Shown here piece after piece: positions 2,784-64,000 of a stretch of 64,000 nucleotides of DNA. The notes beneath the pieces were generated by a model. The model had not been told where the DNA came from. It did no database searches and saw nothing but the letters and a program-made list of their open reading frames with translations. Numbering within the stretch: position 1 is the stretch's first letter; each line of letters begins with the position of its first letter. The DNA comes from a virus (taxonomy: Duplodnaviria > Caudoviricetes), in the IMG/VR virus record IMGVR_UViG_2687453785_000009, one strand, 5' to 3'. A program made the position numbers and the translations under genes.

Positions 2784-2784
2784 G

Positions 2785-7906: not shown

Positions 7907-7920
7907 GGTGTTGGTATCAA

Positions 7921-8649: not shown

Positions 8650-8759
8650 TGAGGCGTCTCCTTGTCTGTCCAGGCTATCCGAAGGCTTGTGTGATGAAAG
8701 GGGCCAATCGTTGTGTCATGGGGGGCAGCGCTTCAAGTGTGGACTGTAGGCGTCTTGCT

Positions 8760-9203: not shown

Positions 9204-9270
9204 GACAGTGCTCCATGCAAGTGAGGCTTTATGCTATCTGGCGGGGGTATGGCGGGGAAGGGGCAGAAAC

Positions 9271-9297
9271 AAAAAGCCCCGCTCGGTGGCGGGGCTT
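9271..9297 (-). terminator. Rho-independent terminator, copy 3 of 3
   Basis: Same hairpin as at 7879. Confidence 0.8.
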
Positions 9298-9312
9298 AGG
9301 CAGTGGAGTGGA

Positions 9313-10889: not shown

Positions 10890-10925
10890 TACTGACGCTC
10901 CTTAGCGACCGTGAAGGGCAGGCCA

Positions 10926-11588: not shown

Positions 11589-11618
11589 CGGTAACGCGTC
11601 CTTGCGTGGTGTGTCGCT

Positions 11619-12158: not shown

Positions 12159-12183
12159 GCGTCCACCTTTTGATTGCCGCCTG

Positions 12184-13017: not shown

Positions 13018-13039
13018 ATGCGCAATGCTCGCGGCTGCT

Positions 13040-13100
13040 GGTGCATATATCAAGAGTGGGCTTGTTGACAGATATGCACCAGTGCATGATCATGTGCATA
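13040..13100 (+). promoter_or_regulatory. PR/OR region: TTGACA at 13065-13070, operator ATGCACCAGTGCAT at 13074-13087, flanking GTGCAT half-sites
   Basis: Between divergent cI and cro; same palindrome as OL. Confidence 0.8.
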
Positions 13101-44800: not shown

Positions 44801-47800
44801 CCGGCGATCAGCTCAAGTTCAACAAGAAGGGTATGTTCCGCAACGGCGGCTTGAAGTGGTCGGACATTAAGGACGATAACGAGGCCATGAAGGTCAAGCT
44901 GTCGGCCAAAGAGAAGATATGGGCGCGACCAGACTGGGAGGAAATCATTGCCGCTCAGCCGGAAGGCATGCGCGATGGATTTGCCCTGGTCGCACACCTC
45001 GTTAAGCAGGTGTATGACGGCATACCAAAGCAGTCTCCCGGCAAGTCGGACGAAGCGCTGCAAACCTACATCGCCGCTGTTGGCGAGCTGCGCGATGCTG
45101 CAGAAGCGCTACTTAGCGATAACGCTAAAGTTAAGCCGCTAGTGGCTGCGCTTGCGGCCAAGGCGGCGCGGCGACTTGGTACCGGCGGCAGCCTTTCAAT
45201 CATCGACATGATTAAAGGCGATGCAGATAGCGCTCAGCCGCTGTTTAGCGTGCTATTTCCAGAGCAGGCCAGTGGCACCCGGTTTACGCGCGGCACCCCA
45301 GCGAACGACAAGGCCAATGCGCTCGACAAGGCCGTGAAAAAGATGCAGTGGGGCGCAGACTCCGCGGTCGAAGCCATGAAGGCCATCAAGAAAGGCTGGC
45401 CCGCCAAGCAGGAGGCATGGCAGAAACAGGGCTATGCGGTGTTCGATAACTCCGCAAATGAAGTCAAGGCGAGCCACTACGAAGGCGGTTCAGGTGTTAG
45501 CACAACACTGAAGCTCGGCAGTTCAACAATTGAATGGCTTGATAAGCAGACGGAATTGGGTGTGGCCAGGCAAGCAGCGGCCGCACGACTCGAACAGCTT
45601 AACGGCAAGCACTTGGTGATGAATAAGCGCAAAAACATCCTTGGCGCATTCGACACCAACGAAGAGGCCGAAGATTTTGCCCGCAAGCAGACGGCTCGCA
45701 AAAAGGTTGAGGTCGATAGCGAAGCGAATGAGGCCGATGAAAATTGGTGGAGTCGCGCAGGTGATGAGCGCCGGCCGGGTAATGCCAATGTAACCGAGGG
45801 CGAATTTAAGGAGGCGTTCGGGTTTCGCGGCGTGAACTTCGGCAAGTGGGTGAACCAGCAAGAGCGTCAGCAGCACCTTAATGCCGCGTTCGATGCCTTC
45901 CATGATCTTGCGGCAGTGCTGGACATACCACCCAAGGCCATAAGCTTAAATGGCATGCTCGGCATGGCCTTCGGCGCACAAGGCGGCGGCAGCGCGGCGG
46001 CGCACTTTGTCGCTGGCGTAAATGAAATCAACCTGACCAAGACTGCTGGCGCCGGAGCGCTTGCCCATGAGTGGGCTCACGGTCTAGATCATTACTTCGG
46101 CGTAAAGGCGGGGCTTGGTCGTGATGGTGCGCCATGGGCGTCAACGCTTGGCAGTCGCCGCAAGCTGCCAGACGGCGTAGAAATTCGCCCGGAAGTCGCT
46201 CAGGCATTCAAGTCTGTCATTGCACAGATGAGAGCCATCGAAGAAACGCCAGAGCAAGCCGCGCAGGCAGCGCTTACCCGGCTTGACCGGGCAAAGATGG
46301 ATATTGCCATGACCACCCAGCCAATGCGCGAGCAACTGGCAGGAAACGCTGAGGCGCTGGCGGCGCTGGACAAAGTAGTTGCCGGTGATATTGGCGAGTA
46401 CGTCACGCTGCCGCCCGCCAAAGGCAAGCGCAAGCCGGTTGGTGCCGTCGCTGCAAACATCAAGATCGTGTTCGACGCGCTGGGCTACAGCAACGAAAAG
46501 ATGGCGAAAGACGGATCGTCTCTAATGGGCGTCTACTTTGCCAAGTCAGAAGTCGGTGGCGTTGCTCGCTCACGGATTAAACACACTGACTTCTACAAGA
46601 AAAGCCAGGCGCGCGACGGTAAGAGTGGAAACTACTGGGCGACCCAGTGGGAAATGTTTGCTCGCGGCTTTGAGTCGTGGGTAATGGATAAGCTGGCAGG
46701 CCAAGACAAGCACAACAACTACCTGGTGCGCCCCGGCAAGAACGATCGTGGCGTTACCGACGAGAACTTCCCATACCCGGCAGGCGAAGAGCGCAAGGCG
46801 TTCAATCAGGCGATTGACGTGCTTACTGCTGAGCTGAAAGCGAGTGCTCCGGATGAAAGCGGCAACGTCGCACTGTTCTCACGCGGCGCCACCGGGGCCA
46901 CCCTCACCACGCTCGGGCGGGGGGATGTAGAGCAGATCACCGCTCGGCTTGTAACAGAAGCCGCCGTGGCCAGACGTTTTGTGTTTTCTTCCTGGGAAGA
47001 GCTGCCGCAGGCGATTAAGGACCGTGCTGCGGCGCAGGGCGCTAAGCCAGGCGAGATAAAGGCGGTTCATTGGCAGGGCAAGACCTATCTGATTGATCGG
47101 CGCTTCACGGATGCGGGCGACGTTGAGCGCACCATCTTCCATGAGTATTACGCACATTACGGTCTGCGCCAGCAGTACGGCAAGGATTTGCATCGCAAGC
47201 TGCTGCGCACCTGGGAAAAGGTCGGCGGCACCAAAGGCGTGCGGGCAATGGCGGCTGAGCAAGGCTTTAACATCGACCACTACATTGAAGGCGCCAAGCA
47301 GGACAAGGAACTGACCGAGGCGCAGCGCCGCGTGCTGGTCATGGACGAGCTGCTGGCACACATGGCCGAGTCGACCGGCAGCCTCAAACGCCTTATTGAG
47401 GAATGGTACGGCGCGGTGCGCGAATGGCTGCGCGGCAATGGCTGGGCAGAGCTGGCCAAGCTGAATGCCGCAGATCTGGCCTTTATGCTGCGTGGAGCAC
47501 GTCAGGCTTCGCTGCGTGCAGACGGTGAGTCGGTAAGCGGTCAGCCATTGTTCCAGTGGGTGGAGTCGGCTAATCAAATATCCACCGTGGCGTTCAAGCG
47601 CTGGTTTGGTGAGTCAAAAGTCGTCGACAAGCAGGGCGCCCCGAAGGTTCTTTATCACGGCACCGGCGAAGACTTTACCTCCTTTGACCAGGGCCGCAGC
47701 GGTAGCAGCACCAGACACAGCACTGCGCCGCTGGGTATCTTTATGACCGGCGACCGCGACACAGCGCAGGCATACGCCGACAAGGCTAGCGACGGCATGC

Positions 47801-50745: not shown

Positions 50746-50747
50746 CG

Positions 50748-50775
50748 AAAAGGGCGCCATTGCGGCGCCCTTTTT
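50748..50775. terminator. Bidirectional terminator
   Basis: AAAAGGGCGCC-ATTGC-GGCGCCCTTTTT between convergent genes. Confidence 0.85.
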
Positions 50776-50778
50776 GTT

Positions 50779-51018
50779 TCAGTTGCAGCTATCGCCACCC
50801 CTTGAGGGGTTACAGTCGCCGGGCACCCCGTCATCGAAATCAGGGCCGCGCTCAACGACTGCCATGGTTAGCAGCAGGGAAAGCACGCCGGCCACGAACA
50901 TGATGATCTGGTTTCGGTTGGCAGTGCGCGGCATCAGCCACGCCATCAGCCCGCCGACGACCATCAGCAGCCAGACGAAATTGGCGGCCAAGAAAATCAA
51001 GAAGGAGAACGCTTTCAT
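50779..51018 (-). CDS. Small 2-TM membrane protein
   Basis: 79 aa, two hydrophobic helices, Cys-containing tail. Confidence 0.65.
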   Translation of the reverse strand: MKAFSFLIFLAANFVWLLMVVGGLMAWLMPRTANRNQIIMFVAGVLSLLLTMAVVERGPDFDDGVPGDCNPSRGGDSCN

Positions 51019-51179
51019 GGCTCCAGCTCGATCAGCGGCAGAGGCTGCATCAGGGCATATTGTTCTTCGGCCCAATGTTTCGCCTGGCGTACTGCTCGCA
51101 GGCGCAGCGCGTCATCATCCAGGCTCAGCGCGTTGTTCACCTTGGCCATAAATTCAAGTAGCAGGTCTTCTGTGGTCAT
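51015..51179 (-). CDS. Small hypothetical protein
   Basis: MTTEDLLLEF... 54 aa with AAGGA RBS. Confidence 0.6.
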   Translation of the reverse strand: MTTEDLLLEFMAKVNNALSLDDDALRLRAVRQAKHWAEEQYALMQPLPLIELEP

Positions 51180-51255
51180 GGGGAAATCCTTTCTCATGGG
51201 CAGATGGTTGATTCTTGATTGACCAGGATGGTGACAACAAGCACCAATTTGCCAT

Positions 51256-51285
51256 AGTGACTTTTCAAGTGACTTAGTGAGTGAC
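51256..51285. repeat. Putative integrase arm-type sites, 3x AGTGAC at 12-bp spacing
   Basis: Direct repeats at 51256, 51268 and 51280, about 80-110 bp inside att. Confidence 0.55.
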
Positions 51286-51366
51286 CGTCCGTTACAGTCA
51301 GGCATCAGGTTGCAGCGAGTGCCCGTAGTTGTTGAGGTTTGGCGCGGCCTGTAGCCGGGCCGGCGT

Positions 51367-51413
51367 GCATGGGGTGCTAGGGGTCGAGTGTTCGAATCAC
51401 TCCGTCCCGACCA
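51367..51413 (+). repeat. att site: duplicated 3' half of tRNA-Pro(GGG), not a full tRNA
   Basis: GCATGGGGTGCTAGGGGTCGAGTGTTCGAATCACTCCGTCCCGACCA has anticodon loop, T-arm and CCA but no 5' acceptor strand or D-arm. Confidence 0.9.
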
Positions 51414-51430
51414 TATAATTCAAGCATTAG

Positions 51431-51459
51431 AGCCTGGTCAGTGATGACCAGGCTTTTTT
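51431..51459 (+). terminator. Rho-independent terminator
   Basis: AGCCTGGTCA-GTGA-TGACCAGGCT-TTTTT. Confidence 0.85.
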
Positions 51460-51486
51460 GTGTCAGGGACTTTTGCGGGACTTTTT

Positions 51487-51531
51487 TCATCCTGCCTTCC
51501 TCCTCAGTATTGTCAGCGCCGGCCCACGTGA
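51487..51531 (-). pseudogene. 3' tip of a tyrosine integrase gene (SRGPALTILRRKAG*) cut off by the Mu-like element
   Basis: Reads toward the att site; peptide recalled from C-termini of tRNA-Pro-targeting pseudomonad integrases; GGGACTTTT repeats adjacent. Confidence 0.6.
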
Positions 51532-51624
51532 TGTAAGCAGGCGCCGGATTTGGCACTACCTTGCGCGATGTTTGGCATAGTTGAGCCGGAGGTTTTCAGC
51601 GCGGTTTAGCGGGGTATTTGGCAC
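51532..51624. repeat. Mu-type end: TGT terminus plus 3x GCG-N5-TTTGGCAY (51541, 51563, 51609)
   Basis: Three same-orientation sites, first two 22 bp apart, reminiscent of the three MuA sites per Mu end. Confidence 0.75.
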
Positions 51625-51776
51625 CAGCTTAAATTAGGTGCGGATGGTGGGGCCTCCCAGTCCGGCCGAAGCCGGGAACCCCACATAGCCATCCGCAGCA
51701 AGCTGCGTCGTACGGCCGGGAGAATGTCACCGTGTCACATCCGCTTACCGACTATAACAAACCATCTGTTTGGGTA

Positions 51777-51865
51777 AAGGTACTGAGAGCAGCGGCCGAA
51801 ATGCTCGATCTTGCCAGGCTCTCTAGGTGCTCATAAGCAAGTGCGGCCGCTGCTCTCAATACCTT
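51777..51865. repeat. 22-bp inverted repeat (1 mismatch) with 45-nt loop
   Basis: AAGGTACTGAGAGCAGCGGCCG ... CGGCCGCTGCTCTCAATACCTT. Confidence 0.85.
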
Positions 51866-51879
51866 CACGTTCTATAGCA

Positions 51880-52602
51880 TCAACAATCTTGGGTGTTTAG
51901 CGCTGCAAGGTAGTCTTCGGGCAGTACGCCCATTGCCTGGCAAACGGCCAATGCGGTCTCATCAAGTTGTTCAACCGCTGGCACGCTGTGTCGCGGGAGC
52001 TGGCTTTTCAGCCAAGCAATGTCTTCCCTGATCTCCGTAACCAACTGATTCGCAGAGCGCTGGATTCCTGGCTGGGGGGTTAGGTTGAAACGCGCTGCGG
52101 CCAGGGCCGATAAGGCGCTCATGCCGTCGAGCACCGGGAAGTTAGTGAGCCCCACATGGTGCAGCTCAAGCACCTCTCCGGTTTGCTTGTCGTAGCTGAA
52201 AACAGGGCTAAGGTAGCGGTACTCCTTACCTGCAATCATAGCTGCCGCGTTTTTTGTCCACTCTACGCCAGTGGCGAATAACCCCCAGCCTTCGCGCCAC
52301 TCCAAGGCACCACCCTTGAACCAAGCAGCAGCCGGCGCAGCATGGCCGTTTTCAGCGCTATTGAGGGTCTGGTGCTCGTAGTCAATAACGAGGTCTGTAG
52401 CACGGGAAGCCGCTTTCGCGATTAACCGGCCAGCCACGCGATTGTCGATAAACCAATGACCGTTCTGAACATCCTTGGGCCGCCCGTCACGCGCTTTGAA
52501 AGCCCCGGCCGGGAGCAGTTGAACGGCGGCATCACTCGCTTTGATTTCAAAGGTGCAAGCGGCGATGGCTGTGCTGCTGTCTGTATTGGTCATAACACCC
52601 AC
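51880..52602 (-). CDS. Mu-like prohead protease (gpI/gp32) with shortened scaffold region
   Basis: QLLPAG.F...DGRP, VIDYEHQT, APAAAW, VEWT, EYRYLSPVF, LTNFP.LDGM. Confidence 0.93.
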   Translation of the reverse strand: MGVMTNTDSSTAIAACTFEIKASDAAVQLLPAGAFKARDGRPKDVQNGHWFIDNRVAGRLIAKAASRATDLVIDYEHQTLNSAENGHAAPAAAWFKGGALEWREGWGLFATGVEWTKNAAAMIAGKEYRYLSPVFSYDKQTGEVLELHHVGLTNFPVLDGMSALSALAAARFNLTPQPGIQRSANQLVTEIREDIAWLKSQLPRHSVPAVEQLDETALAVCQAMGVLPEDYLAALNTQDC

Positions 52603-52610
52603 CCTCAGTA

Positions 52611-53525
52611 CTACGCGCCCGCGCCAGTGGAGCCGTACGCTAGTTGCCAGAAGCCGTAGCCAGAAGCCACGCGGGCTTCAGCACCGAACTTGTACGCCTT
52701 CAGACTGAATACAGACTCCGACTGCGGGCTGACTTGAGCAACAAACTCCGGCGCTTTGCGCTCCTGGTAAATGAACGGACGAATCGGCTTTGAGGTATCC
52801 AGCAGGAACCATGCTGTTTGCGATTCAATGCGGGCATCTATCACCAGTTCGGCTGCCCCTTTGTAGGGGTTCTGGCTGCCGTCTGCGAGTTTCTCGCTAG
52901 TCAGCAGCATCCTTGCAACATCCTCCAGCGCTGTGCCGACAAGGAGCACTGTAGGGGTGACGTTCAGGGAGCGGCCATCTTCATCTTTGACGGCGCGCAT
53001 TGAAGCTCTTGCTGCCCCAAAACCGGCCTGCGCGGCGGCAAGGCTCGTGTTGGAAAGTGGGCTAGTCCCCTTGTTGCTGACTGGCTGGCCTGCAACCTCA
53101 TGTTCGGTGTCGAAGAAGTACTTGCCGTCATAGCACTCTTTGCTGAAGCTTTGATTAACAGCTTCGAAGACCATTTCGTCAGGCAGTTGGGCGGCGGAAT
53201 ATCCTGCCATCTGAGCCTGCGGCATATACATACCGTGCTGGTCGTCTTCAATGTGCTTGCGCTCTACCTCAATGGTGGCTTCGAAATCATTGTTCGGTAT
53301 TTCGTAGTCACTGGCAGTGAGGTTCTGTACATGCTTGGCTCCGATCCATGGGCGCATTTTCGGGAACGCGCTGAGCCAGCCATAGAAGTTGCTGCCCGAA
53401 TTGGACGGTATCTTCATTGCGATCTTGTCCCAGGTCGTCGGCGCGGTCTGGAAGGCATTGTTGAACGCTGTATGCAGTTCGGTGAAAACGCTTTGGAGCG
53501 ACTCTTTGTTGATCAGCATGGTCAT
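52611..53525 (-). CDS. Mu-like major head subunit gpT
   Basis: YGWL..FP.MR.WIG, FEATI.V.R..IEDD, CYDG..FFD..H, WFLLDTSKP..P.IYQER, FWQLAYGS. Confidence 0.95.
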   Translation of the reverse strand: MTMLINKESLQSVFTELHTAFNNAFQTAPTTWDKIAMKIPSNSGSNFYGWLSAFPKMRPWIGAKHVQNLTASDYEIPNNDFEATIEVERKHIEDDQHGMYMPQAQMAGYSAAQLPDEMVFEAVNQSFSKECYDGKYFFDTEHEVAGQPVSNKGTSPLSNTSLAAAQAGFGAARASMRAVKDEDGRSLNVTPTVLLVGTALEDVARMLLTSEKLADGSQNPYKGAAELVIDARIESQTAWFLLDTSKPIRPFIYQERKAPEFVAQVSPQSESVFSLKAYKFGAEARVASGYGFWQLAYGSTGAGA

Positions 53526-53591
53526 GTTTCCTGTAATTGATTGGTGATGAATGTTGAGTTTTTAAGGTCGTAGCTGTGGTTGCTTTATCTG

Positions 53592-55451
53592 TCAGCGCCC
53601 TGCGCCCGTGCGACCTGTGTACACGTTCATATCTGGGCCGCCGTTGCTTTGGAGTTGAGTAACTTTGGCTTTCTGATCACCTTCGATCCGAATAGTGATT
53701 TCGCCTTTCATTGCGTCTGCGCGTTGATTGGCCGCAATAGCCGCGCGGGCTTCCTCGCTAAACGGTGAGATGGCATGTGCGATGGCCGATCCAATGGCGT
53801 CACCAAAGGCCGTGCCCTGAATTACGTAGTCATTGAGTAGAGTGCCGACGCCATAGCCGGCTGCACCGGCCCCTGCCACAGCAGCACCAGCGGTCGCCAT
53901 TGCGCCAGCGCCAGCGCCAAAGGATGGCAACGCAGACAGTGGGGCACCGCCCAACAGGGCCAGCGTGGTTTTGAATTTGCTGAAGGTCTTGGGGGTTAGC
54001 AGATCGCCAGCGGCATCGGCTACCTTGCCGACAGTGCCAACTGTCCCGCCAAGCTCTTTGGGCATGTTGACGACATAGACAGAGGGCACGCCCGCAGCCT
54101 CTTCAAGTGCTTTGCCCATGGCAACGCCGCCGGCTAACTCGGTTCCGCCTTTCAAGGCACCTAGCATCTTGCCGCCAGCCCCAATGCCTTTGAGCAAGTG
54201 ATAGCCGCCATAGAGCAAACCGCCTGTTGCAACGCCTGCTGCTATCCCGGTGCCTACCTTCCCAATCTTGTCGTTCTCCATCGCAGCTTCGCCCAGCGCA
54301 CCAGTCCATTCGTTGGTTTTGCTGATTAGCTTGGTCAACGGATCAAGTGCAGGTTCGAACAGGGTGGCAAAGGTAGATTTGGCAGTACCCCGCAAAGACT
54401 CAAGCTGTGCGTTGTAGCCGTTCAGGCGTTCGGTGAGCTTCTCTTGAAGGCCAACAGCCTTGCCCATCTGCTTGGTCATGTCCTCATAGGAACCCGCGCC
54501 CTGGCGAAGCAAAATCTGTGCGGCGCGACCGCCCTCATCACCGAACATCTTCTGTAAGAAATCGGCACGTTTAGCCGTGCCCATGCCATCCAGGCGTTTG
54601 CGCAGCGTGTCGAGAATATCGATGGTGGATTTCAGGTTGCCATTTGCGTCCTTGAACGTATCAACCTGAACAGCCTGACGGAAAAATGCACTGAGGCTAG
54701 TGCCGCCCATAGAGCCCTTCAAACCGCCTTGGTCGAGGGTAGCAAGTAGGGCGAACATCTCTTTGCTGTCGCGTCCGAGGCCCGCCATGGAACCCGCTGC
54801 ATATTTGGCTCCCTCGGCTATGGAGGCGAAACTGACCGTACTGGCAGAGCCCGCTGCACCAGCTTGGTTTGCCAGCATCATGAATTGGTCGCCGGCCAGG
54901 TTGAACGGTGTGGCAATGGAAATCAGACTTTCGCCTGCCATCACTGCGTCAATACCTTCATAGGCAGCTAGCGCAGCGGCTGCCGCAGCAGCCCCTTGCT
55001 TACCCACAATCTGCTCAAGCTTGGCACCGCCTTTGAGCAGTTCTTTCTGCAGGTTGACGATTTGAGCCTGATCGAAAGGGGTTGATTTCTGGATGTCGAA
55101 AGCCGTGGACTTCATCGCGTGCAGCGCTTTGTCCATTTGAAGAGCGCTATCGACAGAGCCCATCAACTCTGTTTTTACCCCAAGCATGGCTTCTTGTAGG
55201 TCGCCCGCGACTGCCACGCCAGGTTTGATCTTATTAGCGATATATAGCCCGCCAGCAGCCTTGGCGAAGGAACCGGCCATGTCAGCGAAATGGCCACGTA
55301 CTTCATCACTCACCTTGCCGAGCTTGCGCAGTTCCTGTTGACCTTTTCGGCTGAAGTCAGTTACGCCTTGCTCACCCTGTTTTAGGCCAACGCCCAGGGA
55401 GCGCATATCCGCAGTAACGCGCAGAGCCAGCTCAAGATTATTGTTTGCCAT
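53592..55451 (-). CDS. Tail tape measure protein
   Basis: TP901-type core (STPFD, AKYAAG, GLKGSMGGTSL, MFGDEG); VYVVNMP motif of Mu-type TMPs. Confidence 0.9.
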   Translation of the reverse strand: MANNNLELALRVTADMRSLGVGLKQGEQGVTDFSRKGQQELRKLGKVSDEVRGHFADMAGSFAKAAGGLYIANKIKPGVAVAGDLQEAMLGVKTELMGSVDSALQMDKALHAMKSTAFDIQKSTPFDQAQIVNLQKELLKGGAKLEQIVGKQGAAAAAAALAAYEGIDAVMAGESLISIATPFNLAGDQFMMLANQAGAAGSASTVSFASIAEGAKYAAGSMAGLGRDSKEMFALLATLDQGGLKGSMGGTSLSAFFRQAVQVDTFKDANGNLKSTIDILDTLRKRLDGMGTAKRADFLQKMFGDEGGRAAQILLRQGAGSYEDMTKQMGKAVGLQEKLTERLNGYNAQLESLRGTAKSTFATLFEPALDPLTKLISKTNEWTGALGEAAMENDKIGKVGTGIAAGVATGGLLYGGYHLLKGIGAGGKMLGALKGGTELAGGVAMGKALEEAAGVPSVYVVNMPKELGGTVGTVGKVADAAGDLLTPKTFSKFKTTLALLGGAPLSALPSFGAGAGAMATAGAAVAGAGAAGYGVGTLLNDYVIQGTAFGDAIGSAIAHAISPFSEEARAAIAANQRADAMKGEITIRIEGDQKAKVTQLQSNGGPDMNVYTGRTGAGR

Positions 55452-55547
55452 CGCTCATCAACCGTTTGGCGTAGTGTTCAAGTTCTGTCGGTGGAAGGCC
55501 GAGGATTTCCGCACGTGACCAACCCGTGCGAAGGGCCAGCAGCAGGA

Positions 55548-55883
55548 TCAGATCCCAGTTGCTTCGCTGGCCTGCGGCTCGCCGTTTCCCAACATATCCA
55601 GGCGTGTCTGCGCATCACGCAGGGCAAGGAAGTCGGCCTTGGCTTTGATCATCGATCGTACGAACGGCCCATTGAACACCTGGCCATCAACAGACTTGAC
55701 CTGTGTTAGCTGTAACACGGCTTGTTCGGCCCAAAAGGCAATGCCGTTTTCAGTTCCACCTGCTTGAGCGGCGGCGTCGATCAGGTCTTCTAGGTACGGT
55801 TCACGCATGGTGAAGTTGGTGTAGGTGATACCGCCGATTTCAATGCCGCGTGGCAGGGTTCCGGTGACAGTGTGGATTTGCAT
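55548..55883 (-). CDS. Tail assembly chaperone (Mu gp41/lambda G-like); -1 frameshift product extends to 55438
   Basis: LPRGIEIGG....FTMRE; slippery G GGA AAC at 55590-55584. Confidence 0.85.
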   Translation of the reverse strand: MQIHTVTGTLPRGIEIGGITYTNFTMREPYLEDLIDAAAQAGGTENGIAFWAEQAVLQLTQVKSVDGQVFNGPFVRSMIKAKADFLALRDAQTRLDMLGNGEPQASEATGI

Positions 55884-55892
55884 GATGGTTCC

Positions 55893-56165
55893 TTATTGGA
55901 CTTCGGCCGGCTGGTCGCTGATGAGCTTGGAAAGCTCGCGTTCGGTTGGTGATTGCTGAATGAGCTGCTGCTCAAACGGCGACAGCCGCTCACAAGCGTG
56001 TGGTTGCAGGGTTGCTTCAACTGAGCGGTGATTGTGTTGCAGACCTGGTGACAGACTGGGCTGGTGATGCCCTGTAAGAACGGCGCGCTCGGCCTCTCCC
56101 AGCTGTTGGTGAAGTGGCGTTGATGGCCAGCGGTTGGCGGCCGCACGTTGGTCAATGGTTGGCAT
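55893..56165 (-). CDS. Hypothetical protein
   Basis: Fills the gap between mor and the chaperone; AAGG RBS; odd composition. Confidence 0.4.
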   Translation of the reverse strand: MPTIDQRAAANRWPSTPLHQQLGEAERAVLTGHHQPSLSPGLQHNHRSVEATLQPHACERLSPFEQQLIQQSPTERELSKLISDQPAEVQ

Positions 56166-56742
56166 GGCGCACCTTTTCGACTTGTCCAGGAATGCTTGGT
56201 TGAAGGGTTGCGGTCGGAGATGGCTCCTTGAGGATTATCCAGATGCGCCGGTCGCTCAGGCTGAACTTGGTGGCGAGTTCTTTCACCATGCTCACCATGC
56301 TGCGTCCGTTGCGTAGACCGTCCTCTACAGCCCTGTGAATAACGATGTTTCGTGCGGCACGCAGAGCCGACTCACAACGCGGTACATACAGGATTTCGCC
56401 TTCGTAATGGTCACGCAGGAGTGCGGCTAGATCAGGATCTCCCAGAGCATTGGCCAGTTTGGTTAGCGCCCCAACACTCACAGTGCCTTTTCTGGCCTTA
56501 CGCATGGGGATGGCCCAACTTGTTCCACCGAGCTTTGCCGCTACCTGGAAGGGATTTGCATAGCCGATTCTTTCGGCCATTCCATGAATGGATTTCGGTA
56601 ATAACTGGTCGACTACAGCAAGGTCAGCACCGCCGCAGAAAAGGAACTCCTGCACAAGGTTGCTGCTACTAATTTGAATAGACACTCGGCCGGCCTCTTT
56701 AAGAATGCGCTGAACACCCACTGAATTAGATTCAGTAGGCAA
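56152..56742 (-). CDS. Mor/C-family transcription activator (true start probably downstream of 56720)
   Basis: LLP.SI..MAERIG, LGGT, LYVPRC..ALR..RN, ELA.KF.LSDRRIW.ILK. Confidence 0.88.
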   Translation of the reverse strand: MPTESNSVGVQRILKEAGRVSIQISSSNLVQEFLFCGGADLAVVDQLLPKSIHGMAERIGYANPFQVAAKLGGTSWAIPMRKARKGTVSVGALTKLANALGDPDLAALLRDHYEGEILYVPRCESALRAARNIVIHRAVEDGLRNGRSMVSMVKELATKFSLSDRRIWIILKEPSPTATLQPSIPGQVEKVRHANH

Positions 56743-56803
56743 GGCCGGTGGTAGCTTGAAGGGGTTCAGTAGAGTGAAGAGTTTCAGTGGTGAACTGATT
56801 CAG
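56720..56803. promoter_or_regulatory. Four TGAA-N4/5-TTCAG palindromes upstream of the mor-late operon
   Basis: Copies at 56722, 56757, 56775 and 56791. Confidence 0.65.
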
Positions 56804-58281
56804 GAGAGTTTCAGGAGTGGGCGCTGAGATGCGGTAATTGAGCGCTATTCCGCGCTGCGTGAAGCGCGTTAGACCTGCGTTAGAAATGACGATCTATGCC
56901 ATAGGCAGGATCGGGTAGCGCTTAATCGGAAAATGCCTACAGCCGGCTTATAGGCAGTCAGGCTGTGCTGCGACAGGCTCGCTGTTTGGATGTGTCTGGC
57001 AGGCATCTGTAAGCTATGGAAAATTAGAACAGGGAGATCACAGATGTCGTTACTCAAAAATCACGTAACCCAACTTTCTTTTTCGGTCTACGAGAGCAAG
57101 GGCGTTTTCGCCGTTCTGCTTGGCTCCGGCCTCTCGCGCGCCGCTGAAATTCCTACCGGCTGGGAAATTACACTGGACTTGATCAGGCGCATGGCACTTG
57201 CGCAGGGCATAGTGGAACAGTCCGATTGGGCTGCTTGGTATCGTGAGACGACGGGCGAGGAGCCCAATTACTCTGCACTGCTTGAGGAGCTGGCGTCCTC
57301 ACCTGAAGAACGTCGCGCAATCTTGCACAGTTACATTGAACCGACCCCAGAAGATCGGGAAGCGGGGAGGAAGACTCCGACTGAGGCCCACCGAGCAATC
57401 GCAGGCCTCGTGCAAGGCGGGTATATCCGCGTAATTGTCACCACCAACTTTGATCGGCTGATGGAAAATGCGTTACGTGAGCGCGGCATTGAGCCGACGA
57501 TTGTTTCTTCGGTTGATGCGCTCGCGGGCGCGGAGCCGATTACACACAGTGCCTGTTATATTTTGAAGCTCCACGGGGACTATAAGGATGCTCGCATTCA
57601 TAATACTGAGTCTGAATTAAGTGGCTATCCGGTGCCGTATGATGCACTGCTTGATCGAATTCTTGATGAACACGGATTGATCGTATGTGGATGGTCAGGT
57701 GAATGGGATCATGCGCTCCGGTCAGCCTTTCTTCGCGCTCCCAACCGCCGTTACTCTGTCTTTTGGGCTTCGCGCGGTGGGATCGGTAACGGCGCACAGG
57801 AACTGGTCGATCATCGTCGTGCTCGTGTTATTCCGATAACGGACGCGGATAGTTTTTTCTCGACCTTGCATCAGCACGTCGAAACGCTAGGGCAGAGCCA
57901 GCGTCAAAATCCGTTCAGCATCGAGCTTCTAATTAACAGCGCTAAACGCTTTCTTGCCAAACCGGAATATCGAATTCAACTCGATGATCTGCTTATTCAG
58001 GAGACAGATCGGCTGTTAGCGCAGCTCAATGGTGTCGATCTTGCCCAGCCTGGCAATTGGGATACGGCCACCTTTCGCCTCTATGTAAAACGATATGAAG
58101 CGGCCGCCGAATCGCTTACAGCTGTGTGCGGCGTTCTCGGCAGGTGGGGTGATGACAGCGAGTTGCCACTTGTCCTGGACGTCATACGTACTCTTTACGC
58201 CCACGCCGACAAAGTTGGAAGCGGGCTTGTTCCGTATCTCGGACTTCGTTCATACCCAGCGGTGCTGATCTTTACCGCTTA

Positions 58282-59473
58282 GGAAACTCTGAAGAAGACT
58301 TCCTGATTTTGGCAAAATACCCGGATTCCACCCGTCGAGTTTTCCGATGAAGCAGATGACCTTCGCCGACGCCGAGTACGCAGGCAAGCGCAAGCAGACC
58401 CGCAAAGAGTTGTTCCTGATCGAGATGGATCGAGTAGTGCCGTGGGAAGGATTGGTCACCCTGATCGATCCGCACTACCCGAAGGGCGAAGGTGGCAGGC
58501 CCGCCTATGCGCTGATGGCGATGCTGCGTGTGCATCTGATGCAAAACTGGTTCGGTTACAGCGATCCGGCGATGGAGGAAACGCTGTACGAGACCACCAT
58601 CCTGCGCCAGTTCGCCGGCTTAAGCCTGGAGCGCATTCCCGATGAAACCACCATCCTCAACTTCCGTCGCTTGCTGGAGAAACACGAGCTGGCTGCAGGC
58701 ATCTTGGCCGTGATTAACGGCTACCTGGGCGACCGTGGTCTGTCACTGCGCCAGGGCACCATCGTCGATGCCACGTTGATCAATGCGCCGAGTTCGACCA
58801 AGAACAAGGACCGTAAGCGCGATCCGGAAATGCACCAAACAAAGAAGGGCAACCAGTACTACTTCGGCATGAAGGCGCACATCGGCGTGGATGACGAGTC
58901 GGGTCTGGTGCACAGCGTAGTAGGCACGGCAGCCAACGTGGCGGATGTCACCCAGGTAGACAAACTGCTGCACGGCGACGAAAACGTGGTGTGTACTGAC
59001 GCAGGTTACACCGGTGTCGAAAAGCGTCCGGAGCATGAAGGTCGGAAGGTAATCTGGCAGGTGGCGGCACGCCGCAGCACCTACAGGAAGCTCGATAAGC
59101 GCAGCGGGTTATACAAAGCCAAGCGCAAGATCGAGAAGGCCAAAGCCCAAGTGCGCGCCAAGGTCGAGCATCCGTTTCGCGTGATCAAGCGCCAGTTCGG
59201 TTATGTGAAGACGCGCTTCCGTGGCCTGGCCAAAAACACCGCACAACTGGTAACGCTGTTCGCCCTGTCGAACCTGTGGATGGCCCGTCGACATTTGCTG
59301 ACGAATGCAGGAGAGGTGCGCCTGTAATGTGGGAAATGACCGCTGCGAGGTGCTCGCGGCGGCCAGAAACACCGAAATGAGCGGATGACTTGATCGTTTT
59401 TGATCAGTTTTCCGCTTTCAAAATCAGCGGAGGCTGAAGTTGACCGGAAATACAGGGCTACTTCAGACCATCC
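58282..59473 (+). mobile_element. IS5-family insertion sequence, 1192 bp, 4-bp target duplication CTTA
   Basis: Ends GGAAACTCTGAAG / CTTCAGACCATCC; CTTA at 58278-58281 and 59474-59477. Confidence 0.95.
58347..59327 (+). CDS. IS5-family transposase
   Basis: MKQMTFADAEY, IVDATLI, DAGY, RAKVEHPF; 326 aa. Confidence 0.97.
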   Translation: MKQMTFADAEYAGKRKQTRKELFLIEMDRVVPWEGLVTLIDPHYPKGEGGRPAYALMAMLRVHLMQNWFGYSDPAMEETLYETTILRQFAGLSLERIPDETTILNFRRLLEKHELAAGILAVINGYLGDRGLSLRQGTIVDATLINAPSSTKNKDRKRDPEMHQTKKGNQYYFGMKAHIGVDDESGLVHSVVGTAANVADVTQVDKLLHGDENVVCTDAGYTGVEKRPEHEGRKVIWQVAARRSTYRKLDKRSGLYKAKRKIEKAKAQVRAKVEHPFRVIKRQFGYVKTRFRGLAKNTAQLVTLFALSNLWMARRHLLTNAGEVRL

Positions 59474-60155
59474 CTTATGGTTTGGGCCTGACCCGTTCCG
59501 GCCGCTGGGGCGCACTTCATCGACTATTCAGTGCCATTATCGAACGGCAGCACAGTGAGCCGGTTAGGCTAGCCGAAGCTCTTTTTCTGCGGGCTTGGAA
59601 GGGCGGCGAGGGCGATACATGGAAACAAATTGAGGGCTTAGAGCAGCGCAAGACGCCTCTGAGTGATTACCTCTTTATGCTGTTCTCGGAGTGGGGCAAG
59701 CCCTTCATGGGGCTCGCACCTGACTTCGAGCTGATATTTGAACGCTATGAGATGCTAGCCGCACTCGCATTTCTTGAGTGTGACAACAAAGAAGTCATTC
59801 AACAGACATTGGCGGGCGATCCACATAATGGTTGGGCGTTGATGCCGGTAGGGCGCTCCAGTTGGCATTCAAGTTATGCGAGCAGACTCATCTCGGAGCT
59901 TCAAGCGGAGCCAATGAAGGCGGCTCTCATGCGGGCTGGCTTTGCAAAAAACGATGCTGAGTTCGTTGACCTATTTATTGAGAACTTCAAGCGTATAGCC
60001 AGACGGGTTGGATGGTGAATATTGTCTTTCGCTTTCAGCGAGAGAGTACTGCTACATAGCTTGATCAGTTGTGGAACGTTACGTGTTGCATCGGTCGGAC
60101 AAGTGGCAGGGCAGCATCTACACAAGCAACTGGTCAGGTGTTGTGAAATTCAGCA

Positions 60156-60767
60156 CTACGAGTCGTCCTTTTGACGCCTTGGCCTCCTGATGAACATTAT
60201 TTCGCTCAAGTTCGGGTCGTACAGCTGACCACTACGTTGGATTACAGGGGCGTGAGGGCCGGTATGCATGCCCCTGGCCAGGCGGTAGCGTGCTTGCCGG
60301 CCTGGCCGGGATGGACTGACGACTTCCAGATAACCGGCCCAATTTAGCCACTTGAGATAGTTCTTGGCCGTGGCCAGGCTGGTGGCTGAGGCAGCGCTGG
60401 CATTGGTGGCTAACTCTGATGCATTGACGCTGTCCATTATGCGTAGGGTTCGCCACATAGCTTCTGTGCCGCGGCCTTGTAAGCTGGGTGTTCCATCCAG
60501 GCGAAGCCGAGGGGCTTCGGCACCGGTATCTTTTATAAGCCGGAATTCTGCCAGTTCACCAATGCCAGCAACGCGCCCCAGAAAGCCTCCTTTGCGCAGG
60601 CAGCTGATATAGGTTTTCACTGTTTCATCAGTGATGTTCGTGCGCCGACTTACGGAGTAGCAACTGATCCCTTCCGGGTATTGTCGCAGTACATCCCAGA
60701 TTCGTTGGCGGTTGTCTTTGCCGTCCTGTATGCATAGGTGGGCTGGCTTTCGACCTTGTTTAGCCAT
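60156..60767 (-). CDS. Tandem winged-HTH protein following MuB
   Basis: Two wHTH-like repeats (RQRIW, EAMWRTLR); TGPHAP..QR....DPN. Confidence 0.75.
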   Translation of the reverse strand: MAKQGRKPAHLCIQDGKDNRQRIWDVLRQYPEGISCYSVSRRTNITDETVKTYISCLRKGGFLGRVAGIGELAEFRLIKDTGAEAPRLRLDGTPSLQGRGTEAMWRTLRIMDSVNASELATNASAASATSLATAKNYLKWLNWAGYLEVVSPSRPGRQARYRLARGMHTGPHAPVIQRSGQLYDPNLSEIMFIRRPRRQKDDS

Positions 60768-60770
60768 GGT

Positions 60771-61490
60771 TCAGCTCCGCCGTAACGGGGCATCGCCCGT
60801 GAACCAGCCGCGCTTTTCCCACTGAGCCAGGCTGATGCTATCCAGGCACAGGGCTGCGGCTTCGGATTGAACCTGGTGAAGGTTGACAACGATCCGCCTT
60901 AAACAGCCGCGCACGGCTTTGCACAAATCTTCCAGTAAGTCGTCATGGATATGCAGGTGCGGATAGTTGGCGTCGGCCAGGGCGCGCATGTCTTCTGTTG
61001 TTGCTGCTAAGGCGGGCACCCACTCCAATACCCGGTTGTGCAGGCGCTCGCGTTTGGCCATGGATTGCTGCACGCGCTCTTCACCGATCAGGACAATGGT
61101 GCCGTGGCTGGCGTTGTAAATGTCGGTCAGTACGTTCGCGATGGCCTTATCCAGGAGGTATTGAGCATCATCTATTAACAGTGGTCGGCGGCTTCGTGAA
61201 AGCTGGTCGGCGATCTGATCGACCATCTCGGACATGGTGCGCAGGGGAAGTATTGCCATCTCTTTGAGGATGGCGGTGAGAAAGGCTTTCTTTGTCCAGG
61301 TGTCACGGCATTCGACGTAGTAGCCGCGATAGATATTGGCGGCGAAGTTGGCCCCCACTGTTTTACCCAGGCCACTAGCACCGTACATCACGACTAGGCC
61401 GGGCAGGTTGTCGGGTCGGTTTTGTGCGCGCTCTATGGCACTGGCCAGCAGCCCCACATTGGTCAAAGGTACGATCTTTGATCCGTTCAT
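60771..61490 (-). CDS. MuB-like AAA ATPase
   Basis: YGASGLGKT, LLIDD, VLIGEE; ATG at 61490 with GGAGA RBS. Confidence 0.92.
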   Translation of the reverse strand: MNGSKIVPLTNVGLLASAIERAQNRPDNLPGLVVMYGASGLGKTVGANFAANIYRGYYVECRDTWTKKAFLTAILKEMAILPLRTMSEMVDQIADQLSRSRRPLLIDDAQYLLDKAIANVLTDIYNASHGTIVLIGEERVQQSMAKRERLHNRVLEWVPALAATTEDMRALADANYPHLHIHDDLLEDLCKAVRGCLRRIVVNLHQVQSEAAALCLDSISLAQWEKRGWFTGDAPLRRS

Positions 61491-61512
61491 GATCTTCTCC
61501 ATCTCGGCCTGC

Positions 61513-63525
61513 TCAGCGTGCGGGCATGGCGTGCTCGAAAACGCGCCGAATAGCTTGATAGTCAGGGTGTTCGGAGTAGCGCTGGTGCCATAGAGCCTCT
61601 TCGTCCGAGAGGCCGTCACCTGCATGCAGGCGAGTATCGAGGCGCTGCCAGAGTCGGTAGCGAGACATGGCGTCACCCGGCACCGTGAATGGATTTGGTA
61701 CAGGCGCTGCCAGACGTTCAGCATGTTTGCGGGCAGCTGCTAGCTGCTCTTGGCTGTAGTCGATAACAGGCTCTGAAACCAACTCAACACGCCGGCCGGT
61801 CAGGTTTTCCAGCTTGGCGACGGTCTTCTTGAACTGGCCCTTGGCCTGTTTGGCATAGCCTTGCTCGACTATCGACGGTGCTATGTAGTCGCTGGCGTTG
61901 CCGTTTAACTTGGCTTCGCCGATCAACTCGCCACTCAATGAGCGTATCCATACCCGAGAGGCATCACGGACGTCATGAGCAACCCTTACCTGCTTGCCGT
62001 GTAGGTCAGCCAGCGCATCCAGCGCATAGCGTTCGCCAGCCCAGGCGATTTCGCCGCGCATGGTCTTACGGACGATCTGCGGGCGGAACAGGTCGTTCAC
62101 GACTTCGGGCGGTGCTTTGAGTGGTTCCCAGCCCTTGGCTATGGCTGCATCCCAGGCCTCCAGCTGCGTCATGTGGCGGCGCTGGAATGTCTGCGGATCA
62201 CGTGTCTTGGGCAAGCCCCGGTGTGGCTTATGGTTGTAGGCTTCTATCTCCGCTTCGGCACCGGCCCGGAACTCTGCGAAGGTGGGCATCAGGCTTGTGC
62301 TGCCTGTGTCGCGCAGTTGCTTCCGGGTGATTTTGTGGACTTTATGGCCTGCATGCCGATCCATATCGGCACCCAGGTAGCTGGGTATCTTTTTGGCTGC
62401 ATTAACCCATATGGTCTGGTGGGCACGCTCAATCAATCCGCGAGCTTGGCTGTTGTATGGCAGGGCGTGGATCATGCTGCCGCCCAGGCGTTCTACGACC
62501 TCCCGAACGGTGTTGCTCTTATAGCCAGGGCCATTATCGACGTAGAACATCACGAACATGCCGCCGCGCTGCACTGCGTCACGCAGGGCATCGAGCACGA
62601 CGATATGCGACTCGGCTTCACCGACCGAAAACCCCAGGGCGCGGCGCGTGGCTACATCTATTACCGTGGTGATTTCTGGGCGGTAGGGTTTGCCGGTAAG
62701 AGGGTTCAGCACCTCGGCATCAAAGGTATGGCCGTCGGCTGTGTATACCTCACCGGGCAGCATATTCAGCGTGTTGCGCCGGTTGAACGGCTTGTGTGCT
62801 TTGGCTTCCTGGGCGCTACAACGGCCAAACTCACGGGCATCGATGCTTAGCTTATTAAGGAAGCGCCGCACCTGGTGAATGCTCGGGCGCTCGCCAGAGT
62901 GTTTGCCTGCGAACTCTGCATAGCTGGCCTCGACACTGGGTTTTGTCGGGCGCTGATAGCAGCGTAGAAAGTCTGCTGCCCATTCCGGCACGTTCACGTC
63001 AGCCTTGCGGCGGGCCGGCGCTAAGCCGGACTCGCCACCCTGTCTGTATTCAGCAAGCCAGCGCTTTAGCGTTCGCTCAGATAGGTTGCGGCTGCTGGTT
63101 TTGCGGTCGTTGGCACGCTCCAGGCGTTCAGCCAGATAAGGGGAAAGCTCGCCAGTTTTGAGCTGGCGAAGTAGCAGCTCTATGGCCTGGCGTTGAGAGG
63201 TGACTTTGCTTAGGTGCTCTATCTCACGAATGAATGCCAAGCGAGCAGTCTTGACAGAGCGTTGCGTATCGCTGAGGCGTGACGACGAATTAGCGTCACG
63301 CTCGGTGGTATTGGACGAGTTAGCCGCGCCCACGGCCTTTGAAAGCAAAGACTGCTGGGCTTCGGTGGGCAGTGAGGCAAAGGCGTATTCGCTGGCCTTG
63401 CTGCCGATCCGCCGTTGACTAGTCCAGCCGGCTCTCTGTGCGAGGCTGCGGATTGCACGGGGCGTAGTAGGCAAACCTGACAGGCCGGCAAGTTCTTGGG
63501 CTGTATACCAACTGTTCATAGGCAC
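61513..63525 (-). CDS. MuA-like DDE transposase
   Basis: N-terminal Mu HTH (WYTAQELAGLSGLP); TADGH, VDNGPGY, GLIER; YNHKPHRGL. Confidence 0.95.
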   Translation of the reverse strand: MPMNSWYTAQELAGLSGLPTTPRAIRSLAQRAGWTSQRRIGSKASEYAFASLPTEAQQSLLSKAVGAANSSNTTERDANSSSRLSDTQRSVKTARLAFIREIEHLSKVTSQRQAIELLLRQLKTGELSPYLAERLERANDRKTSSRNLSERTLKRWLAEYRQGGESGLAPARRKADVNVPEWAADFLRCYQRPTKPSVEASYAEFAGKHSGERPSIHQVRRFLNKLSIDAREFGRCSAQEAKAHKPFNRRNTLNMLPGEVYTADGHTFDAEVLNPLTGKPYRPEITTVIDVATRRALGFSVGEAESHIVVLDALRDAVQRGGMFVMFYVDNGPGYKSNTVREVVERLGGSMIHALPYNSQARGLIERAHQTIWVNAAKKIPSYLGADMDRHAGHKVHKITRKQLRDTGSTSLMPTFAEFRAGAEAEIEAYNHKPHRGLPKTRDPQTFQRRHMTQLEAWDAAIAKGWEPLKAPPEVVNDLFRPQIVRKTMRGEIAWAGERYALDALADLHGKQVRVAHDVRDASRVWIRSLSGELIGEAKLNGNASDYIAPSIVEQGYAKQAKGQFKKTVAKLENLTGRRVELVSEPVIDYSQEQLAAARKHAERLAAPVPNPFTVPGDAMSRYRLWQRLDTRLHAGDGLSDEEALWHQRYSEHPDYQAIRRVFEHAMPAR

Positions 63526-63576
63526 CTCTTATATGTGCCTGCCGACCCAGCCGCACGACTGGGCCAGCACGGGGGA

Positions 63577-63837
63577 TCAAGCCGCTTGGCGGGCAGCGTC
63601 GAACAGCGCTTCGGCGTCTTCCACAAGTAGCAGCAGGGCTCGTGACGCGCTGGCAAGATCGCGAGGGCCGCTGTCATCTGACCTACATGTACTAAGTACA
63701 GAGAGCAGCTCTCGCACTGCACCCAGACGCCAGTCGGCGGCATCCATCAGGTCACGGCGTGTAACGCTGTTGTCAACGTAGAGCACTGGTTTAGTGCTGC
63801 CTTGTGAGCCTGAGGCAAGCGCTTTGAAATTAGCCAT
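63577..63837 (-). CDS. Hypothetical protein
   Basis: 86-aa helical ORF with GAGG RBS. Confidence 0.7.
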   Translation of the reverse strand: MANFKALASGSQGSTKPVLYVDNSVTRRDLMDAADWRLGAVRELLSVLSTCRSDDSGPRDLASASRALLLLVEDAEALFDAARQAA

Positions 63838-64000
63838 GTGCCACCTCTTGAACTTCCAGAGCGCGGGCTTTGGCCATGGCAGCGTTATAGCGGGCCAGGC
63901 GAACGGAGAGGGACGAATCGGCGCGTAAGGCTGCGAGGGCTATTGCACGAAATGCAGCCGCATGGGCGGGGCTGGTGGACGGATTGCGGGCGTGTTTCAT
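63830..64000 (-). CDS. Small hypothetical protein (MKHARNP...ALAALRADSSLSVRLARYN); may extend beyond the window
   Basis: Hand translation; overlaps the next gene start. Confidence 0.6.
   Translation of the reverse strand: MKHARNPSTSPAHAAAFRAIALAALRADSSLSVRLARYNAAMAKARALEVQEVAHG

Follow-up and report, generated by a model that had tools for sequence, protein, structure and literature searches.

What kind of mobile element occupies the right-hand part of this window, by which we mean the whole 64,000-nucleotide stretch analysed (IMG/VR record IMGVR_UViG_2687453785_000009; G000:C3:3804567-3868566)? A preliminary description, made from the sequence alone, placed a bacteriophage Mu-type element there, beginning at position 51532, and proposed that it is a phage satellite that moves by transposition. 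We observed an intact Mu-type mobile unit in which the activator gene mor stands directly before a tight operon of four intact virion genes. By membership, it is a Mu-type transposable element, is not an autonomous phage, and falls outside every described satellite family. We consider it probable that the unit is a natural mini-Mu, that is, a helper-dependent transposable satellite of Mu-like myophages, with a family of its kind in Pseudomonas. The satellite proposal has thereby gained an intact unit, a family of relatives and evidence of purifying selection; its further part, in which the element reprograms or poisons a helper, is still deduced from gene content.

The element spans 51532-65323 (coordinates past 64000 are genome sequence in window numbering) and measures 13,792 bp; subtracting a recent insertion sequence (IS) of the IS5 family leaves about 12.6 kb, a figure that corrects the earlier estimate of about 11 kb. 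Its start had been placed precisely: position 51532 is the first base of the right end (TGTAAG...TTTGGCA), which extends to 51640, begins TGTAAGCAGGCGCCGGATTTGGCA and contains three TTTGGCA repeats as candidate MuA-binding sites. The left end at 65323 reads TGTGAG...TTTGGCA inward (...CTAACTCACA on the strand), giving TG...CA termini (TGTGAG... and ...CTTACA) with TTTGGCA repeats. A perfect 5-bp target duplication, CGTGA, abuts both ends, at 51527-51531 (the right-end copy, read from the sequence) and at 65324-65328. The part outside the window (64001-65323) contains two leftward open reading frames (ORFs; orf147 and orf100), AGAAAAGAAAC-like repeats and the left end; several copies of the AGAAAAGAAAC-like motif, in both orientations, lie at 64300-64900 between the leftward ORFs and the early operon and are possibly operator sites. 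Beyond the left end follow a 133-amino-acid (aa) integrase fragment (PF00589), a fragment of a type IV secretion system coupling protein, an AraC regulator, a TonB receptor and more host genes. Pfam and PHROGs scans revealed no integrase inside 51532-65323, the PF00589 fragment lying only outside the left end. The preliminary description had noted that its proposal would fall if the lacking morphogenesis genes lay past 64000 in the same element; they do not, because the left end, the duplication and then host genes are what is found there.

Gene content was taken from the ORF listing together with Pfam and PHROGs scans, and the early and late genes all lie on the minus strand. The Mor-family late activator (56152-56742, 196 aa; PF08765, 2.3e-8) overlaps the start of orf90 by 14 bp (55893-56165; no family, with a homologue of 42% identity at the same position in L070, a small element described below). 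There follow a tail assembly chaperone (TAC; 55548-55883, 111 aa; phrog_508, 3.2e-9, with a score of 22.6 bits against Pfam PF10109, under the 25-bit cut-off), a tail tape measure protein (TMP; 53592-55451, 619 aa; PF10145, 1.2e-21, and phrog_28), an intact major head subunit gpT (52611-53525, 304 aa; PF10124, 1e-91) and I', a short Mu gpI-type head protease (51880-52602, 240 aa; PF10123, 1.1e-64, covering profile positions 1-147 of 330 only). These genes are spaced by 96 bp (TAC-TMP), 66 bp (TMP-T) and 8 bp (T-I') and have AGGA/GAGG ribosome-binding sites; 3' of the last of them, an inverted repeat on the same strand (51774-51868; 25-nt arms, 92% complementary) is a candidate operon end, which a simple terminator scan did not list. 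The gpT of the window shares 68% identity with its counterpart in the genome's full-size prophage and 75-76% with that of L070; its TAC matches L070 TAC at 74%, and its TMP matches, at 58%, the TMP from a complete tail module of a myophage in genome G010.

The early operon comprises orf107 (63830-64153, crossing the window end at 64000), located upstream of orf86 (63577-63837), a marker of the small-element family; an intact 670-aa MuA-type DDE transposase (61513-63525), matching phrog_310 over residues 1-667 (2.2e-157) and carrying the Mu DNA-binding and C-terminal domains (PF02316, 5e-12; PF09299, 6.5e-13); a MuB-type AAA+ transposition protein (60771-61724; phrog_296, 1e-55; AAA_22, 1.3e-12); and a winged-helix-type transcriptional regulator (60156-60767; phrog_2030, 6.9e-56), which comes after MuB in small and full-size elements both. 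The gene list first drawn up for the element, with MuA, MuB, a winged-helix gene and a Mor-led operon, was thus confirmed, and a defence-like cargo gene is present as well, as one SIR2 candidate defence gene of PADLOC type PDC-S65 cut into two parts. Its N-terminal part (56990-58282, plus strand, 430 aa) covers profile positions 9-422 of 592 and its C-terminal part (59440-60018, plus strand, a 192-aa ORF) positions 418-587; between them sits the IS5-family element (58288-59475, give or take a few bases; plus strand, about 1,188 bp), delimited by comparison with the genome's other IS5 copies. Being split in this way, the window copy of the cargo gene is probably inactive. Near-identical IS5 copies number well over 150 in G000 (they were not counted exactly), on the chromosome and on a 206-kb replicon, and also lie in both full-size Mu-like prophages.

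These prophages, located at C3:2.058-2.095 Mb and 2.581-2.620 Mb, are Mu-like myophages, both IS-riddled and with an interrupted MuA, and provide the standard for what the element lacks. A tblastn search of the window element with 28 proteins of the genome's full-size Mu-like prophage (E ≤ 0.01) matched only Mor, I, T, TAC and TMP, in agreement with the earlier statement that morphogenesis and lysis genes, and debris of them, are absent; no terminase, portal, MuF, sheath, tube, baseplate, fibre, lysis or mom gene or debris was seen in the element. The Pfam and PHROGs scans concur with tblastn in that the full lysis, terminase, portal, head and tail set of an autonomous Mu-like phage is not present. 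In the prophages, the early half runs Ner-like, MuA, MuB, regulator, ..., Mor, lysis, TerS, TerL, portal, MuF, and the later half I (354 aa), p1731, T, ..., sheath, tube, TAC, TMP, baseplate, fibres, mom; nine more full-size relatives, from other genomes, and 12 mapped IMG/VR loci likewise have portal, MuF, I, (p1731), T in this succession, as far as those genes fall in the stretch. The late genes of the window, TAC > TMP > T > I' on a single strand, are not colinear with the full-size relatives. Simple deletion or inversion was rejected as the source of this order: T and I' are co-stranded with an 8-bp gap and the phages have I > p1731 > T, so that neither event yields the arrangement. The earlier remark that simple deletion could not produce it therefore held up against the full-size prophages of the same genome.

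Of full-length gpI, the short I' retains the protease domain and the C-terminal tail. Residues 10-174 of I' align with residues 9-173 of the G000 prophage gpI at 67% identity, and residues 195-236 with residues 308-353 at 50% identity. An alignment of 14 sequences revealed that the short forms are without two blocks of the helical C-terminal half, which, by what is known of Mu gpI/gpZ, are the putative scaffold part of gpI, and retain a conserved helix and the C-terminal ...LD..AL.VC.AMGV.PEDYLATLNA tail. The ten best database matches to I' are all 229-246 aa long (58-97% identity, 93-99% coverage), with forms of about 350 aa ranking lower, and an independent 245-aa short form occurs in another small element (L051, genome G417). 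These comparisons indicate that I' is a conserved in-frame mini form, not a truncation. In its AlphaFold model (predicted local distance difference test, pLDDT, 69), four helices come after a beta-rich domain. When IMG/VR was scanned with the protease alignment, 80 loci were kept; the short form was absent from the 12 that were mapped, all of them full-size phages, 11 of which show a full-length protease at its normal place in the gene order.

The element is one of a family. A DNA search of 61 genomes (60 relatives and G000) picked up the 44-bp right end beside gpT in G010, and a MuA search of 401 genomes of the genus (E ≤ 1e-100) gave matches in 21, G000 included; the matching loci were mapped with the element proteins and a full-size reference set and scanned with Pfam and PHROGs. 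Small elements of 10,327-13,792 bp number eight, namely the window element, five in four other genomes and two on IMG/VR contigs. Their late operons read Mor > orf203 > T > TAC > TMP in L015 (Pseudomonas sp. 8Z, G010; 13,115 bp); Mor > orf82 > TAC > TMP > orf256 in L019 and Mor > T > orf135 > orf170 > TMP remnant > p1731 in L021 (both Ectopseudomonas oleovorans, G308; 11,610 and 10,327 bp); Mor > T > orf188 > TMP > p1731 in L046 (G363; 12,624 bp); Mor > orf199 > TAC > TMP (two ORFs) > I' (245 aa) > orf244 in L051 (G417; 13,640 bp); Mor > orf70 > TAC > TMP > T > orf87 > orf189 > second T in L070 (IMG/VR contig; 12,938 bp); and two Mor > T > TAC > TMP > three unknown ORFs in L118 (IMG/VR contig; 12,644 bp). 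Gene orders thus differ among the small elements (for example TAC>TMP>T>I', T>TAC>TMP and T>orf203>TMP>p1731), and the unusual order of the window, Mor > small orf > TAC > TMP > T, recurs in L070.

All eight share the end pattern TGTRAGNNNGNGNCNGNTTTGGCA at both ends, and over the terminal 44 bp the element's right end shares 82-93% identity with those of the other genome-borne elements. Six of the eight lie between perfect 5-bp duplications, which are all different (TCACG, AAATC, GCTTC, GGTGG, AGAGG, AAGAG). The same kind of element, which the preliminary description had suggested looking for at other insertion sites, exists in seven further copies, and the architecture is not unique to this genome. 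The marker orf86 is likewise found in every one (60-91% pairwise identity) and in none of 12 mapped full-size-type early regions, eight of which have a Ner-like phrog_2345 gene at that place. Across the eight elements, 21 other morphogenesis, lysis and mom proteins (TerL, portal, MuF, sheath, tube, hub, wedge, fibre, endolysin, spanin and mom) were unmatched at E ≤ 0.01. TMP is present in 7/8 (with the remnant in L021 in addition), TAC and gpT in 6/8 each, the helical orf203 family in 5/8 and the short I' in 2/8; TMP together with its chaperone makes up the steadiest part of the cargo. The TMPs, 560-827 aa long, belong to different families, PF10145 with phrog_28, phrog_973 or phrog_10574 versus PF20155 with phrog_339. 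The cargo between regulator and Mor includes defence candidates in two of the eight: the PDC-S65 SIR2 gene of the window and an AriA/OLD-like ATPase with a TOPRIM protein in G417.

In a collection of 5.8 billion proteins, orf86 fell into 35 clusters, the named ones all from Pseudomonas, and orf203 into 12; several of the longest contigs behind these clusters measure 11-15 kb. The predicted model of the orf203 family is all-helical (pLDDT 74.6), fold searches of BFVD and PDB gave no match to it at E ≤ 0.001, and orf203 and orf256 fall only in 'hypothetical protein' clusters of the Atlas; for these reasons, 'scaffold-like' stays a guess for orf203. An end-pattern scan of IMG/VR returned 50 stretches, mostly right ends of full-size myophages beside fibre and baseplate genes, two of them being the small elements listed above. 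A metagenome scan with the orf86 alignment gave no relative, and the left-end pattern gave five metagenome stretches, one alone with Mu genes, of full-size type. The L070 contig (13,190 bp) carries a hint of recent movement: the element occupies 127-13064, with host flanks of exactly 126 bp at both ends and the AGAGG duplication, as would be expected from a de Bruijn assembly at k=127 (assembler and k being assumed) in which occupied and empty sites coexisted. Sequencing runs offer a lead: among those listed as matches, 20/24 contain all or part of the late operon; 11 have at least half of its words, and the studies number 13. The six best runs (0.84-0.94 of the late-operon words) bear six different coded organism labels, and one may be the window's own sample; no RNA run is among the late-operon matches listed.

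We then considered whether selection on these genes is relaxed, which the preliminary description had named as a sign of a decayed prophage, by pairwise Nei-Gojobori ratios of nonsynonymous to synonymous substitution (dN/dS). MuA of the four closest elements gave 0.08-0.10 at dS 0.22-0.77. For gpT, the ratio was 0.11 between L046 and L021 (dS 0.55), 0.10 between L015 and full-size prophage 1 of G000 (dS 0.74; 87-88% amino acid identity), and 0.09 between the window and L070, where dS is near saturation (1.98). TAC of the window versus L070 gave 0.24 (dS 0.88). Relaxed selection was thus not found, and the unsaturated comparisons (0.08-0.10 for MuA, 0.10-0.11 for gpT) indicate that both genes are under purifying selection.

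A MuA tree of 19 sequences (IQ-TREE) united the window element, L046, L015 and L019 in one clade (100/100) and left the position of L070 not resolved; a single MuA origin of the small elements was rejected, there being at least two groups in the tree. The right ends of both G000 prophages fit the end pattern with 0 and 1 mismatches and full-size left ends with 2-3, and the exact left-end 24-mer is present in two full-size-type early regions, L066 and L109. The early module and ends are family-specific and MuA and structural genes have been exchanged with full-size phages, and we therefore regard the family as mosaic. Two types of gpT were seen, one colinear to PF10124 (L021, L046, the second gpT of L070, and L118) and one with PF10124 segments 151-218 and 218-286 swapped (the window, L015 and the full-size prophages of G000, G010 and G308); L070 has one gpT of each type, and the G000 prophage genes lie at C3:2077427-2078299 and 2602903-2603772.

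A Mu-like portal, which marks a possible helper, was detected in three of the five carrier genomes (G000 with its two prophages, G010 and G308; one query). This co-occurrence may lie above chance expectation, given that a close MuA occurs in only 21/401 genomes of the genus, in a sample that is small and of related genomes. Intact elements of 11.6-13.6 kb compare with full-size contigs of 33-40 kb, a ratio of about one third, and the P4/P2 and SaPI/80alpha pairs have a size ratio of about one third likewise.

Helper dependence, small capsids and a role for the tape measure are what we infer from these genes, and the following course of events is proposed on that basis. In the lysogen, the element would be silent, candidate repressor ORFs (with no family found) facing left near the left end. 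Induction of, or infection by, a full-size Mu-like phage would set off replication of the element by transposition, and Mor would switch the late operon on. gpT and the shortened I', or in relatives gpT and the helical orf203 protein, would then assemble heads upon the portal of the helper; with an element roughly a third as large as the helper, these heads would probably be small, admitting the element and excluding the helper. The helper terminase would package a headful from the shared Mu-type left end, the element's own TMP and chaperone would enter tails otherwise made of helper parts and might evade defences or exclusion aimed at TMP, and MuA would integrate the element after injection. 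We hold the redirection towards small capsids tentatively and with some doubt, and the rationale for the tape measure is a guess. Taken jointly, the claim would be that of a first satellite class using Mu-type transposition instead of an integrase plus replicon, whose own gpT, short protease or helical protein, TMP and chaperone yield small-headed particles of about 13 kb, with TMP as a counter-move to TMP-targeting defences or exclusion; as a whole we rate this as quite possible, a little short of probable.

Several observations weigh against the satellite reading or parts of it. Family gpTs are up to 87-88% identical to that of a full-size phage, and at this closeness give no hint of a size-changing capsid, and a mini-Mu of 12.6 kb could ride in full-size heads with host DNA. 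With the single query used, a Mu-like portal was not found in G363 or G417, and the window element is possibly stranded at present, as both full-size prophages of G000 have an IS-interrupted MuA. Two of the eight elements (L015 and L046) are without a matching 5-bp duplication. With gpT in 6/8 and I' in 2/8, no single hijack gene set defines the family, nor do the small elements form one MuA clade, L051 and L118 grouping with the full-size L052 (100/99). L021 is decaying, with MuA and the regulator frameshifted and a TMP remnant only, and TMP of L051 in G417 is split in two ORFs.

Decay of another kind, in which ordinary Mu-like prophages have lost their late genes by deletion and IS-mediated rearrangement, would account for some of this: G000 carries more than 150 IS5 copies, both of its full-size prophages are IS-riddled, L021 is clearly degrading, and an internal deletion would spare the ends and the target duplication. 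It would have to explain, however, why eight elements converge on 10.3-13.8 kb with no debris of the lost genes, why they carry family-specific genes not seen in the mapped full-size phages (orf86 in 8/8, the orf203 family in 5/8), and how three different non-colinear orders arose on a single strand with spacing as tight as the 8 bp from the gpT stop to the I' start. Together with purifying selection and the conserved in-frame short form of I', this makes decay very unlikely as the general explanation. A helper-dependent mini-Mu could also do without capsid remodelling, being packaged by headful into normal heads with about 25 kb of host DNA, its structural genes matching or replacing helper parts, for example to suit several helpers. 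Laboratory mini-Mu is packaged in this way by helper Mu, some element gpTs are 87-88% identical to those of full-size phages, and the TMP families differ as if each element fitted another helper; yet the clade of shortened proteases and the helical orf203 proteins beside gpT point to altered head assembly, and the clustering of sizes near one third of the helper is left unexplained. This is a weaker form of the satellite idea, and we think it rather unlikely that it describes the family.

The element might instead be a defence transposon that interferes with assembly, in which the Mor-driven capsid, protease, chaperone and TMP are decoys that spoil invading Mu-like phages. Such an element would move by Mu-type transposition inside cells and by other vehicles from cell to cell, and its structural genes would shield the host population instead of forming particles of its own. 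Defence-type cargo does occur in the same elements, and their genes are homologues of helper parts that could co-assemble with them. TMP is, moreover, a known battleground: the prophage defence Tab is reported to block tail assembly via TMP in Pseudomonas transposable phages, which escape by TMP swaps (PMC10884400), and tail-assembly inhibition, Tai, is reported to be common in satellites and prophages (PMC11364771). Tab and Tai act, as the element is proposed to, on the tail assembly and TMP of temperate phages, with Tab in Pseudomonas transposable phages; they are small inhibitor proteins, whereas the element carries TMP and chaperone themselves, and PADLOC (2023 version) gave no Tab or Tai match among 13 cargo proteins, no Tab or Tai sequence having been used as a query. 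Decoys also need no full-length conserved sequence, whereas gpT evolves at dN/dS 0.10-0.11 and the TMPs have normal lengths of 560-827 aa; nor would decoys account for sizes clustered so closely around a third of a helper genome, or for the left-end 24-mer that the full-size L066 and L109 share with the small elements. We judge this explanation unlikely; since known satellites interfere with their helpers too, it is less an alternative to the satellite reading than a partly shared one.

If the element is a satellite, it has most in common with the phages it would exploit. It shares with Mu-like myophages MuA, MuB, phrog_2030 after MuB, Mor, the TG...CA ends, TTTGGCA repeats and 5-bp duplication, and its gpT, gpI, TAC and TMP are homologous to theirs at 27-88% identity. 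It differs from them in being a third of the size, in being without lysis, terminase, portal, MuF, sheath, tube, baseplate, fibre and mom genes, in having orf107-orf86 in place of the Ner-like gene, in its non-colinear late order, and in a protease without the putative scaffold blocks. Laboratory mini-Mu likewise consists of Mu ends with A and B, is small and needs helper Mu for packaging; the present element, in contrast, occurs naturally, is a member of a family that has diversified and is under selection, and brings along family-specific genes and a structural operon driven by its own Mor.

To our knowledge, described satellite families all integrate by an integrase and as a rule have no tail genes. 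P4-like satellites, phage-inducible chromosomal islands (PICIs), capsid-forming PICIs and PICI-like elements (PLEs) resemble the element in having about a third of the helper's size, their own regulation and replication, few head genes, and most virion genes gone. In general terms, too, the element looks like a satellite: most virion genes are absent, and genes presumed to act on helper morphogenesis are present. Unlike P4-like satellites, PICIs and PLEs, it has a DDE transposase and no integrase, carries TAC and TMP, and is without primase, replicase, AlpA and TerS. Capsid-forming PICIs have a full head module and a small terminase/HNH, whereas the element has capsid and short protease only, with no portal, adaptor or terminase. 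A hotspot for cargo, defence genes included, is a further shared trait. In the main text of de Sousa et al. 2023 (PMC10085698), on known satellite families, the terms transposase, transposable and Mu-like occur 0 times. A full-text literature search outside subscription journals and supplements likewise found no transposable or Mu-like satellite, in line with the earlier claim that no known satellite has this gene set. The element most likely represents a new family of satellites, similar to P4 or PICI in the way it works and to Mu in the way it moves.

If this is true, phage parasitism has also evolved from, or on, transposable phages, and nature offers a mini-Mu in which head size could redirect headful packaging. 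TMP would then be a part worth owning for satellites, a link to the tail-assembly defences recently described in Pseudomonas. Carrying defence cargo and moving by transposition, such elements may spread immunity genes to many chromosomal sites and not to one att site. Named carriers exist in Pseudomonas sp. 8Z and Ectopseudomonas oleovorans SDU_PSEU1, which makes the idea directly testable.

Other features were observed in single members of the family and around them. A 107-aa ORF lies 130 bp inside the left end of three elements (L015 16408-16731, minus strand; L019 8548-8871, plus; L070 12611-12934, minus) and corresponds to the N-terminal third of the Mu gp27 small terminase only (PF11985, 36-37 bits at a cut-off of 28); this ORF might also help to steer packaging. 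Neither such a gp27-like ORF nor a TerS is present in the window element. A 244-256-aa protein of no family is the last gene before the right end in L019 (19134-19904) and L051 (3637-4371) and is 82% identical between the two, although their MuAs are only 63% identical. Solo right-end motifs occur in L016 (4123-4146; G029) and L017 (3952-3975; G032), with 86-89% identity over 44 bp and no Mu-like gene within 16 kb inward. At locus L053 (G311:C12:52700-72600), MuA, MuB, Mor, lysis and tail genes (a sheath fragment, TAC, TMP and hubs) were read, with no terminase, portal, MuF, protease or capsid in the 20 kb; a deletion, or a tailocin-like derivative lacking a head, may account for it.

Just outside the right end of the window element, a stretch resembling a tRNA 3' end (seen by eye at about 51380-51415) is followed by a strong terminator hairpin, the two together occupying 51380-51460. 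ARAGORN and Rfam reported nothing at 50700-51700 or 50700-64000, so that the tRNA-like stretch was not confirmed. Since an integrase fragment flanks the opposite end, insertion of the element at the edge of an old integrative island is conceivable. Farther from the element, a 2,969-aa ORF at 41836-50745 ends about 800 bp before the element.

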